From Phycisphaerae bacterium (lineage in GTDB: Bacteria > Planctomycetota > Phycisphaerae > Sedimentisphaerales > Anaerobacaceae), in the NCBI GenBank assembly GCA_016782865.1, contig JADHXR010000043.1, positions 14,504-46,503 of the forward strand: a stretch of DNA of 32,000 bases, in the 5' to 3' direction. Within the stretch, counting starts at the first letter, position 1. The number at the start of each line of letters is the position of its first letter. Positions 11,991-13,406 of the stretch are shown here, in pieces. The notes beneath the pieces were generated by a model that worked only from the letters and a program-made list of their open reading frames with translations, had not been told where the DNA came from and searched no databases. The position numbers were made by a program, and so were the translations under genes.

Positions 11991-12284
11991 CTAGCCGCAG
12001 CACGAATTCGAACAGTCACAATCCGGTTCTGTCCCCCGCAAGAATCCGTTGATGACGGCTTGGGCACAGCCGACCCCCGCTCCGACTGAAATCGCGTCCG
12101 CGGGGCAATTATTTCGGCAGGCCCCGCATTCCATGCAGCTATCGGGGTCAACCAGCCGCGCCCTTCTGTCCTCAATCGCAAAAACGCCGTGCGGACAAAC
12201 CTCCGCGCATCTTTGACAACCTATGCATTTCTCGACGTCAAGCTCCAGCGTAACGACGTTTTTCAGATATTGGAGTTTTCCCAT
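11991..12284 (-). CDS. hgcB: HgcB, 2x[4Fe-4S] ferredoxin of the mercury methylation pair
   Basis: 97 aa from ATG 12284. Two CX2CX2CX3CP motifs (CIGCQRCAEVCP, CMECGACRNNCP), an additional Cys in GVGCAQ, and a C-terminal vicinal Cys pair (SNSCCG). It lies 25 nt downstream of hgcA. Confidence 0.9.
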   Translation of the reverse strand: MGKLQYLKNVVTLELDVEKCIGCQRCAEVCPHGVFAIEDRRARLVDPDSCMECGACRNNCPADAISVGAGVGCAQAVINGFLRGTEPDCDCSNSCCG

Positions 12285-12309
12285 AACAGTCCGACTCTCG
12301 TTTGTTGTC

Positions 12310-13359
12310 CTATACAAAACGCCCTGCCAGCCATAGCCCAGTACCCGCCACGGCACAGATTATCTGTGCAGGCACTGCGATTCTCATCTCCCGCTTTACT
12401 CCCGACAGCGAAGTGTATGTAGAAGCCCCGGTAAAGTTCATCACAACAAAACTCGTCAAAGCCGGTATCATCAGAAACCACGCGAGAATGTCCAGACGAT
12501 CGTTCCAGGAATTCCACAACCCCCGGCTCTGGAGACCCAATATTATGGATATTGCCAGCCCAATCCACATCCCCTTGGCGGAGAACGCCCGCCCGGGCAG
12601 CCAGGGCAGCAGGGCGGGCCCCAACATGCCGGCTGCCAGGTAGCTCGCCAACAGGATCAGGACACTTCTGATACCATCAGAGGCGACGAGCTTGCCTGAG
12701 TATCCTTCTCGACTGAGACCGGCAAGTACCAGGAAACATGCCGCCGCGCACAAAACATGTTTGCCCCAGCCGATTAGTTCCACCGGTATCAGCACGATTC
12801 GATCGGCGAGCGGAAAATCGACTCGCCGCATCTGTTCGGTCGCCTTCATACCTCCGTCGAGAAAGGCCGGCAGGTCCTTTGCCCGCACCGGACCGTACAG
12901 CACCTGAAAGCCGCTTTGTTGCTTCACCACATGTGCGCTGACGCCCGTTGCGCCAAGCTGGGGGACTATGAGCTTCTTGTGCGCAACAATCTCGCCCAAT
13001 CCGACGTTCTCGATACGACTGACCAGCTCTTCGGTTCCGAATGTCCCTTTGCCCGCGGCACACCAGACGTTGATGCCCTTGGTATCGAGCACGAGTATCC
13101 AGCCATCGCGGCCGGTCAATCCGCTCCTCAGACGGTCGAAGCTCATCTTGTAATTGGCCGTGACAAAAACGGGAGTTTCGGCGGTGGGCTCACCCACGCC
13201 GTAAAGTCCGGGCTCGACCGAGTATTTCATCCGCCCGATAGCCCAGCGCACCTTCCAACTGCCAAGCCTGTCGGCCCAGTCCAGTTCCGTGGCGACTCTT
13301 GGAATCTGTCGCCCGTTGTGTGTTATGATTGAAATCGCCCGCACGCTGTCAAAAGCCAT
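12310..13359 (-). CDS. hgcA: HgcA, corrinoid protein of the mercury methylation pair
   Basis: Diagnostic cap-helix motif LVLDTKGINVWCAAGKGTFGTEEL sits in a CFeSP-like N-terminal domain (PVFVTANYKMSFDRLR). About five hydrophobic helices follow in the C-terminal half. ATG 13359 is preferred; an in-frame TTG at 13374 is possible. Confidence 0.93.
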   Translation of the reverse strand: MAFDSVRAISIITHNGRQIPRVATELDWADRLGSWKVRWAIGRMKYSVEPGLYGVGEPTAETPVFVTANYKMSFDRLRSGLTGRDGWILVLDTKGINVWCAAGKGTFGTEELVSRIENVGLGEIVAHKKLIVPQLGATGVSAHVVKQQSGFQVLYGPVRAKDLPAFLDGGMKATEQMRRVDFPLADRIVLIPVELIGWGKHVLCAAACFLVLAGLSREGYSGKLVASDGIRSVLILLASYLAAGMLGPALLPWLPGRAFSAKGMWIGLAISIILGLQSRGLWNSWNDRLDILAWFLMIPALTSFVVMNFTGASTYTSLSGVKREMRIAVPAQIICAVAGTGLWLAGRFV

Positions 13360-13406
13360 TTGCCCTGATCTCAATTGCGAATTCTTATCGGGAACAACAG
13401 CAGACT

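Follow-up and report, generated by a model that had tools for sequence, protein, structure and literature searches.

An intact hgcA-hgcB gene pair in an uncultured Phycisphaerae bacterium closely related to SG8_4

The hgcA and hgcB genes and their products

An open reading frame at 12310-13374 was present on the minus strand of the window (the whole 32-kb stretch of DNA analysed), and translation from the ATG at 13359 gave a 349-aa protein containing LVLDTKGINVWCAAGKGTFGTEEL. This start was preferred over a TTG at 13374, which had set the end coordinate in an earlier note on this DNA, because HgcA homologs are likewise 349 aa long and aligned over 100% of the protein. The gene was identified as hgcA and the gene that follows it as hgcB (Table 1).

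Table 1. Positions of the genes and features of the hgcA-hgcB locus within the window.
Feature	Position	Strand	Description
hgcB	11991..12284	(-)	Mercury-methylation ferredoxin, 2x[4Fe-4S], 97 aa
Cys-rich C-terminal tail of HgcB	11994..12020	(-)	CDCSNSCCG; Cys89, 91, 95 and 96; vicinal pair Cys95-Cys96
HgcB Cys73	12066..12068	(-)	Extra conserved Cys, in GVGCAQ
Second CX2CX2CX3CP cluster motif	12102..12137	(-)	CMECGACRNNCP; HgcB residues 50-61; contains diagnostic C(M/I)ECGA
First CX2CX2CX3CP cluster motif	12192..12227	(-)	CIGCQRCAEVCP; HgcB residues 20-31
hgcA-hgcB spacer	12285..12309	(-)	25 nt; TAG stop at 12310-12312, hgcB ATG at 12284; genes separate, not fused
hgcA	12310..13359	(-)	Mercury-methylation corrinoid protein of 349 aa; starts with ATG, ends with TAG
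C-terminal membrane domain of HgcA	12316..12792	(-)	Five predicted TM helices: residues 190-212, 222-253, 259-277, 285-307, 318-348
N-terminal soluble corrinoid-binding domain of HgcA	12805..13305	(-)	About residues 19-185; homologous to C-terminal B12 domain of CFeSP large subunit
Cap-helix motif NVWCAAGK	13048..13071	(-)	HgcA residues 97-104; regex match; Cys100 inside
flgE-hgcA intergenic region	13360..13512	(-)	153 nt; promoter-like site at 13435-13407

HgcA scored well above the cutoff of the curated NCBIfam equivalog model HgcA_corrinoid (NF040863; 452.6 bits against 275, E = 7e-136). Residues 19-348 matched model positions 1-324 of 325, so that support extended over both the cap helix and the TM region. 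HgcB matched the corresponding equivalog HgcB_ferredoxin over model positions 1-93 of 93 (NF040864; 130 bits against a cutoff of 99, E = 2.2e-38), as well as the Pfam Fer4/Fer4_7 domains. Models of the possible paralogs stayed below their cutoffs. The model of fused HgcAB-like proteins (NF043039, cutoff 285) gave 197.2 bits for HgcA, a partial match, and 60.9 bits for HgcB, and the CFeSP gamma model (NF003195) gave 73.7 bits against 306, with only model positions 322-445 of 450 matched. The canonical hgcA-hgcB pair reported in the earlier note was thus confirmed, and neither of two refuting outcomes named in that note, a paralog placement or a loss of HMM support across the cap helix and TM region, was borne out by these scores.

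The two-domain topology of HgcA was evident from hydropathy and from structure prediction. Residues 1-185 lacked any hydrophobic segment (the highest Kyte-Doolittle mean over 19 residues was 0.85), and residues 188-345 gave five peaks of 1.68-2.10. Five long helices within residues 190-348 were also seen in the AF2 model (mean pLDDT 84.2). In the N-terminal part of this model, strands and helices alternated (E51-55, E64-68, H71-80, E86-91, and onward), a modelled pattern consistent with an alpha/beta fold (pLDDT mostly 80-94). Pfam PF03599 (CdhD) was detected at residues 46-164 (47.2 bits). The earlier description of a soluble CFeSP-like N-terminus followed by about five hydrophobic helices agreed with these results. 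The best Foldseek match was the HgcAB model of Pseudodesulfovibrio mercurii (Desulfovibrio desulfuricans) ND132, a methylator validated by experiment (9a0b_A; 45% identity, 333 columns, E = 5.5e-22). The deposited 9a0b entry is itself a computed model, and a sequence search of the PDB yielded no experimentally determined structure of HgcA.

The same PDB search aligned the CFeSP gamma chains 2h9a and 4c1n to HgcA residues 46-167 (E about 2e-11; 1.9e-11 for 2h9a), and homology to CFeSP was confined to this stretch (PDB chain residues 318-439). It corresponds to the B12-binding domain that HgcA shares with the CFeSP large subunit (AcsC/CdhE; PDB 2h9a, 2ycl, 4c1n, 4djd), superimposed by Foldseek with an rmsd of about 3.1-3.2 A over about 127 columns. 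CFeSP differs from HgcA in possessing a TIM barrel and a [4Fe-4S] domain at its N-terminus, and in lacking both a TM domain and a cap-position Cys (the aligned sequence is DTDGTSVLTAWAAGKF).

The cap-helix motif that had been noted in the ORF at 12310-13359 was recovered with the pattern N(V/I)WC(A/S)(A/G/S)GK, in which the Cys is conserved (Cys93 in ND132), and NVWCAAGK figures among the six motifs that a consensus protocol lists as "high-stringency" (PMC10087281). Among 35 HgcA homologs, I96, N97, V98, W99, C100, A102, and G105 were invariant, and A101, G103, and K104 were conserved in at least 90%. Cys100 is predicted to be the cobalt-thiolate ligand. The AF2 model, which contains no cofactor, did not assign a helix to this segment, and confidence was lower there (pLDDT about 68-70 over residues 91-110).

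For HgcB, every element named in the earlier note was found, namely a 97-aa ferredoxin 25 nt downstream of hgcA, two CX2CX2CX3CP motifs, GVGCAQ, and a vicinal Cys pair. The second motif contains CMECGA (residues 50-55); C(M/I)ECGA together with hgcA on the same contig, as is the case here, constitutes the high-stringency criterion for HgcB (PMC10087281). This signature was present in 71 of the 73 complete HgcB sequences from related loci, and a CC pair lay within the final 8 residues in 62 of the 73; four Cys in the final 16 residues was the commonest state (33/73). In 76 of 80 related loci, HgcB immediately followed HgcA. Cys73 and Cys95-Cys96 are probably equivalent to C73 and to C94 and C95 of ND132 HgcB, an equivalence drawn from sequence pattern and from the HMM match over the full length, not from direct alignment; C73 has been implicated in the activity of the ND132 protein (PMC11588087). 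The vicinal pair of the tail is proposed to bind and deliver Hg(II).

The gene pair resembles that of ND132 in its two-gene architecture, in the HgcA features (CFeSP-like corrinoid domain, NVWCAAGK cap helix with the predicted Co-ligating Cys, and five TM helices), and in the HgcB features (two CX2CX2CX3CP motifs, Cys73, and a C-terminal Cys pair). It differs in that its host belongs to the Planctomycetota whereas ND132 belongs to the Desulfobacterota, and in the HgcB tail, which carries four Cys and has a Gly as its last residue, following the CC pair. The partial HMM matches indicate that fused HgcAB-like proteins are built from the same modules (corrinoid, TM, and ferredoxin), but these proteins are single polypeptides, whereas the genes in the window are two ORFs parted by a stop codon and a spacer.

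Genomic context and host lineage

A run of seven genes, ABC2-ABC-thrC-flgE-hgcA-hgcB-ahbB, matched the gene order in Phycisphaerae bacterium SG8_4, a MAG from the White Oak River estuary (LJTR01000184.1). The seven genes were 82-93% identical at the amino-acid level (HgcA, 84%; HgcB, 85%; flanks, 87-93%; FlgE, 82%) and about 85-90% identical at the nucleotide level, corresponding to species-level divergence. Relative to SG8_4, the window carries an additional stretch of about 225 nt just after hgcB. Locus L001 was nearer to the window than SG8_4, with 91% identity in HgcA. The flanking thrC, ABC transporter, ahbB, hemA, and ahbC/D-like genes were collinear with those of SG8_4, L001, and L004 (82-94% amino-acid identity). 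In a neighbor-joining tree, HgcA nested inside a Phycisphaerae-labelled clade together with these syntenic relatives, a grouping consistent with vertical descent. Related Planctomycetota MAG proteins are labelled "mercury methylation corrinoid protein HgcA" at NCBI. Recent horizontal acquisition, considered on compositional grounds, was rejected, since the GC content of hgcAB (55-59%) was like that of the flanks (52-62%) and HgcA grouped with syntenic relatives.

On gene order and protein identity, the host is placed as a close relative of SG8_4. The PVC/planctomycete-like lineage suggested earlier was accordingly upheld by synteny with SG8_4 and a sister MAG and by the position of HgcA, and the neighbours cited at the time, FlgE, GH127, a PilM-like protein, and a 1180-aa PQQ-type beta-propeller protein, were all present in the window.

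Upstream of hgcA, a consensus scan yielded a promoter-like site, TTGGCT and TG-GATAAT separated by a 17-nt spacer, which may serve as a promoter of hgcA; the 50 nt proximal to the gene were 88% identical in L001. On the coding strand, no convincing terminator candidate was found between hgcB and ahbB, and a Rfam scan of the whole window revealed no cobalamin riboswitch or other RNA element at gathering thresholds. Unlike in ND132, no ArsR-like regulator adjoins hgcAB, which instead lies between flgE and the tetrapyrrole operon; the nearest regulators, an Rrf2 protein and a sigma-54 two-component system, are 6-10 kb off.

hgcAB immediately precedes a tetrapyrrole operon (hemA/ahbB/ahbC/ahbD) of the same orientation, with hemD-hemL 10 kb away. 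When the HemA, AhbB, AhbC, AhbD, HemL, and CcsB-like proteins of the window were compared with 80 hgcA loci by tblastn, this linkage was found only in the close relatives L002 and L004 and was absent from the other roughly 50 hgcA loci with at least 4 kb of downstream sequence. The linkage was therefore rejected as a general feature of hgcAB. It is lineage-specific, and the sole mildly unusual feature of the locus. A functional meaning, either co-regulated supply of precursors for the HgcA corrinoid or a native role of HgcAB in tetrapyrrole or C1 metabolism, is considered very unlikely; if true, it would provide a handle on the physiological function of HgcAB.

Alternative explanations for the locus

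The gene pair could be truly orthologous to hgcAB and yet be silent, inactive, or engaged in another corrinoid-dependent methyl transfer, so that no meaningful amount of methylmercury is formed in situ. HgcAB has no known physiological role in any organism, and methylmercury production does not always follow its expression (PMC7438021). Further, HgcAB is expressed at a very low level in ND132 (PMC11588087), and methylation by one of nine hgcAB-positive methanogens tested was reportedly not above that of controls (PMC5893877). In addition, our literature search found no methylation assay on any Planctomycetota isolate. Against this possibility, all functionally implicated residues are intact and the gene pair is conserved, and the clustering of HgcA with syntenic relatives fits vertical descent. 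Moreover, Planctomycetota MAGs (Sedimentisphaerales and Pirellulales) express hgc in euxinic Baltic waters (PMC9494745), and hgcA from Phycisphaerae typifies the anoxic, sulfidic layer of the Black Sea, where MeHg and the total abundance of hgcA are correlated (PMC10469668). On balance, a pair without meaningful methylating activity appears unlikely.

Far less probable is a host outside Phycisphaerae and the PVC group, with hgcAB horizontally transferred and the MAG labels unreliable. Species and HgcAB phylogenies are incongruent (PMC7438021), moderately similar HgcA proteins also occur in Zixibacteria, Nitrospirota, and other phyla, and the titles of the nearest MAGs conflict ("Pirellulales" for L001, L003, and L004; "Phycisphaerae" for L002 and L005). 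However, these disputed labels all fall within Planctomycetota, the GC content of hgcAB shows no anomaly, and the assignment rests on collinear flanking housekeeping genes in addition to HgcA.

The reading as a paralog that does not methylate, whether a fused HgcAB-like protein of the kind found in Pyrococcus furiosus or the Wood-Ljungdahl CFeSP (AcsC/CdhE), is effectively refuted already. In its favour, Pfam reports just the generic CdhD domain for HgcA, many close homologs carry the JGI label "acetyl-CoA decarbonylase/synthase complex subunit gamma", and the fusion model matches in part. Against it, the scores for the fusion and CFeSP models stayed below their cutoffs and that for the HgcA model exceeded its own, the genes are separate, the CFeSP homology is limited to one domain, and no CODH/ACS or CFeSP small-subunit gene was present in the 32-kb window. 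Fused HgcAB-like proteins, such as that of P. furiosus, do not confer Hg methylation in culture.

We therefore consider it very likely that the window carries a bona fide, intact hgcA-hgcB operon of an uncultured anaerobic member of the Phycisphaerae (Planctomycetota) closely related to SG8_4.

Proposed mechanism and implications

A mechanism for this operon can be drawn by homology from the ND132 system (PMC11588087). The five C-terminal helices would anchor HgcA in the membrane, and its N-terminal CFeSP-like domain would bind a corrinoid whose cobalt would be ligated by the cap-helix residue Cys100. HgcB, with its two [4Fe-4S] clusters, would reduce the cofactor to Co(I), which would then be methylated to CH3-Co(III); in the purified ND132 complex, the methyl donor is S-adenosylmethionine (PMC11588087). 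Finally, the methyl group would pass to Hg(II), probably presented by the C-terminal Cys pair of HgcB and Cys73, to give methylmercury. Corrinoid binding with Co-thiolate ligation and methylation by S-adenosylmethionine have been shown only for the HgcAB of ND132 (PMC11588087), and by analogy cofactor binding, electron transfer, methyl transfer, and methylmercury production may be expected in the present organism.

The interest attached to the locus in the earlier note was overstated. hgcAB in Phycisphaerae and other Planctomycetota, including its expression in situ, has been published (PMC7573106, PMC10469668, PMC9494745, PMC7438021), and the HgcA of SG8-4 already serves as a BLAST reference (bioRxiv 10.1101/2020.02.03.933291). 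Because of these publications, and because the exact protein is already present on eight public ENA contigs, the novelty of the finding is low: the identification of hgcAB is correct but ordinary, and its carriage by Phycisphaerae is already known.

The window nevertheless adds one more well-resolved Phycisphaerae locus, with an intact operon and its full context over 32 kb, and offers a clean candidate pair for heterologous expression or complementation of a Planctomycetota HgcAB. hgcAB lets anaerobic microbes convert inorganic mercury to toxic methylmercury, the bioaccumulating neurotoxic form of the metal, and to our knowledge it is the only genetic marker of methylmercury formation. Forecasts of methylmercury production in anoxic waters and sediments are shaped by knowledge of which lineages carry these genes. 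The present locus enlarges the recognised group of putative fermentative PVC methylators and leaves the overall picture unchanged.

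Identification and anatomy of the hgcA-hgcB pair

The hgcA product scored 452.6 bits on the NCBIfam equivalog model for HgcA (cutoff 275; model positions 1-324 of 325), and the hgcB product 130 bits on that for HgcB (cutoff 99; positions 1-93 of 93). The models of two paralog families failed their own cutoffs, namely the HgcAB-like fusion (197.2 bits; cutoff 285) and the gamma subunit of the corrinoid iron-sulfur protein (CFeSP; 73.7 bits; cutoff 306). The pair is almost certainly a true hgcAB ortholog. Pfam recognised nothing more specific than Fer4 domains and, at residues 46-164, a generic CdhD domain, which accounts for the many public homologs mislabelled as "acetyl-CoA decarbonylase/synthase subunit gamma".

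All features that the earlier note had described for the pair were found where it had placed them (see table). The internal ATG is the likely hgcA start, because close homologs are 349 aa long and aligned with 100% of the ATG form. The hgcA stop codon is followed by a spacer of exactly 25 nt and then by hgcB.

Features of the hgcAB region (window coordinates or residue numbers)
Feature	Position	Strand	Remarks
Partial hemD + hemL	63-1911	+	left end of window
ahbC-like radical SAM protein	6396-7643	-	529 vs cutoff 650
ahbD-like radical SAM/SPASM protein	7680-8786	-	379 vs cutoff 500
hemA	8783-10090	-	
ccsB/hemX-like membrane protein	10100-10978	-	
ahbB, siroheme decarboxylase beta	10972-11547	-	156 bits vs cutoff 125
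hgcB	11991-12284	-	97-aa ORF after hgcA
HgcB CIGCQRCAEVCP	residues 20-31		
HgcB CMECGACRNNCP	residues 50-61		
HgcB extra Cys	residue 73		GVGCAQ
HgcB tail			CDCSNSCCG
Long ORF	12310-13374	-	TTG start
hgcA	12310-13359	-	internal ATG at 13359; 349 aa; TAG stop; contains LVLDTKGINVWCAAGKGTFGTEEL
HgcA cap-helix motif NVWCAAGK	13048-13071 (residues 97-104)	-	
Promoter-like site upstream of hgcA	13435-13407	-	consensus match only
flgE, flagellar hook gene	13513-15198	-	561 aa
PQQ/BamB-type beta-propeller protein	18793-22335	+	1180 aa; after ABC-2 transporter pair
468-aa ORF	22401-23807	-	no Pfam or NCBIfam match
Pectate-lyase-like (RHGA/epimerase) protein + GH127	24023-27775	+	pectate-lyase-like gene directly upstream of GH127

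NVWCAAGK is one of six motifs setting the high-stringency class in the community consensus protocol, and CMECGA in the co-located gene is the HgcB counterpart of that class (PMC10087281). In an alignment of 35 HgcA homologs (at least 60% identity), I96, N97, V98, W99, C100, A102, and G105 were invariant, and A101, G103, and K104 were conserved at 90% or more. Related loci supplied 73 complete HgcB sequences, of which 71 contained C[MI]ECGA and 62 a Cys-Cys pair within the last eight residues; the four-Cys tail, as in the window HgcB, was the commonest state.

The soluble N-terminal part and about five hydrophobic helices previously read from HgcA were borne out by two approaches. Kyte-Doolittle analysis revealed no hydrophobic segment in residues 1-185 and five hydrophobic peaks thereafter, and the AlphaFold2 model (mean pLDDT 84.2, pTM 0.71) contained an N-terminal domain of strands alternating with helices, consistent with an alpha/beta fold, and five long helices (190-212, 222-253, 259-277, 285-307, 318-348). 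In this cofactor-free model, no helix was called in the cap segment (pLDDT ~68-70). The top Foldseek match in the PDB library was 9a0b_A (E = 5.5e-22; 45% identity over 333 columns), a computed model deposited for the HgcAB complex, followed by CFeSP large subunits, which matched the N-terminal domain over only ~127 columns. A PDB sequence search with HgcA returned CFeSP only (E ~2e-11, residues 46-167), in which, unlike in HgcA, the Cys is missing at the cap position. Orthology, motifs, topology, and adjacency were thereby shown for the window hgcAB.

Genes surrounding hgcAB

A co-oriented, closely packed gene set (6396-11547, -), beginning 443 nt downstream of hgcB, suggests that the Phycisphaerae host uses the siroheme-dependent (Ahb) heme pathway; the window contained only one AhbA/B-type gene, and the AhbC and AhbD scores were under the curated cutoffs. 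Since HgcA needs a corrinoid, the linkage of hgcAB to tetrapyrrole genes is suggestive. Of the 52 related hgcA loci that extended 4 kb or more downstream, L004 alone shared this linkage, and in Phycisphaerae bacterium SG8_4 (L002) ahbB lies beside hgcAB, where the contig ends. The linkage is lineage-specific, as it is kept only in these two close relatives. The ~225 nt directly downstream of hgcB (11766-11990) had no counterpart in SG8_4, whose hgcB-ahbB spacer is approximately half as long, and no ORF, Rfam element, or clear terminator accounted for them; the ahbB-proximal 212 nt of the spacer were 90% conserved.

No riboswitch or other Rfam element was detected in the window, and no ArsR-like regulator adjoined hgcAB. 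The flgE gene lies between thrC and hgcA, as it does in SG8_4 and in L001, the two nearest loci; L004 lacks it there, with thrC 289 nt from hgcA. No other flagellar gene was found in the 32 kb.

The pectate-lyase-like and GH127 genes indicate degradation of plant or algal polysaccharides, in keeping with a Phycisphaerae bacterium that lives by fermentation. The GH127 beta-L-arabinofuranosidase ends in a C-terminal F5/8 type C domain. A 739-aa ORF (23957-26176, -) is probably spurious because it overlaps these plus-strand genes.

Host lineage and relatives

A PVC/planctomycete-like host had been proposed earlier, and FlgE, GH127, the PilM-like protein, and the PQQ-type propeller, cited as its context genes, were all confirmed. 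The order ABC2-ABC-thrC-flgE-hgcA-hgcB-ahbB was common to the window and SG8_4 (82-93% amino-acid identity), which NCBI taxonomy assigns to the class Phycisphaerae of the phylum Planctomycetota (PVC group), and thrC-hgcA-hgcB-ahbB-ccsB-like-hemA-ahbD-like-ahbC-like was common to the window and L004 (70-90%). The host assignment therefore draws on more than HgcA. In a neighbour-joining tree built from 80 HgcA sequences, the window HgcA nested with L001, SG8_4, L004, L003, L005, and another Phycisphaerae MAG, and hgcAB did not differ from its flanks in GC content. Synteny, tree, and GC content upheld the proposal, and we assign the host to the Planctomycetota (Phycisphaerae) with high confidence.

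In the species-representative genome collection, the loci nearest to the window were L001 (HgcA 91% identical) and SG8_4 (84%). Eight public contigs from ENA metagenomes carry an identical HgcA in the same gene order, and the four compared with the window showed 99.9-100% nucleotide identity. The 468-aa ORF was also called on ENA contigs, with no Pfam match recorded there.

The MAGs of L001, L003, and L004 (binchicken co-assemblies) are titled "uncultured Pirellulales bacterium"; they match SG8_4 and the window in gene order, with housekeeping proteins that are 82-94% identical, so the order-level labels look inconsistent with each other. Identity to L004 was 70% for HgcA, 75% for HgcB, and 71% for ahbB, versus 82-90% for flanking housekeeping genes. 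Although less conserved, HgcA still grouped with its syntenic relatives, consistent with faster hgcAB evolution rather than replacement.

Proposed function in a known carrier lineage

Common HgcAB-encoding microbes include Phycisphaerae (PMC7573106), and putative methylators have been recognised among PVC members (PMC7438021). In the Black Sea, the anoxic, sulfidic layer is characterised by Phycisphaerae hgcA (PMC10469668), and hgc is expressed by Sedimentisphaerales and Pirellulales MAGs in the Baltic (PMC9494745). The SG8-4 HgcA has served as a BLAST reference (bioRxiv 10.1101/2020.02.03.933291), and close relatives are listed at NCBI as [quoted passage not shown]. Given these records, the window locus is a known system, correctly identified, in a known carrier lineage. 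No mercury-methylation assay on a Planctomycetota isolate was found in the literature searched.

In Pseudodesulfovibrio mercurii ND132, the source of experimentally characterised HgcAB, SAM methylates the cobalamin, which yields a methylcob(III)alamin intermediate in which the conserved Cys is the Co-thiolate ligand, and the methyl group then passes to Hg; HgcA C93 and HgcB C73, C94, and C95 are important for activity (PMC11588087). By sequence pattern, these correspond to Cys100 of the window HgcA and to Cys73, Cys95, and Cys96 of the window HgcB, respectively. By homology, we infer that the window HgcAB would bind the cofactor, activate it through redox chemistry, and transfer the methyl group: SAM would methylate the HgcA-bound cobalamin, with Cys100 as Co-thiolate ligand, and the methyl group of the methylated cofactor would move to Hg. 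It is likely that the organism actually methylates mercury.
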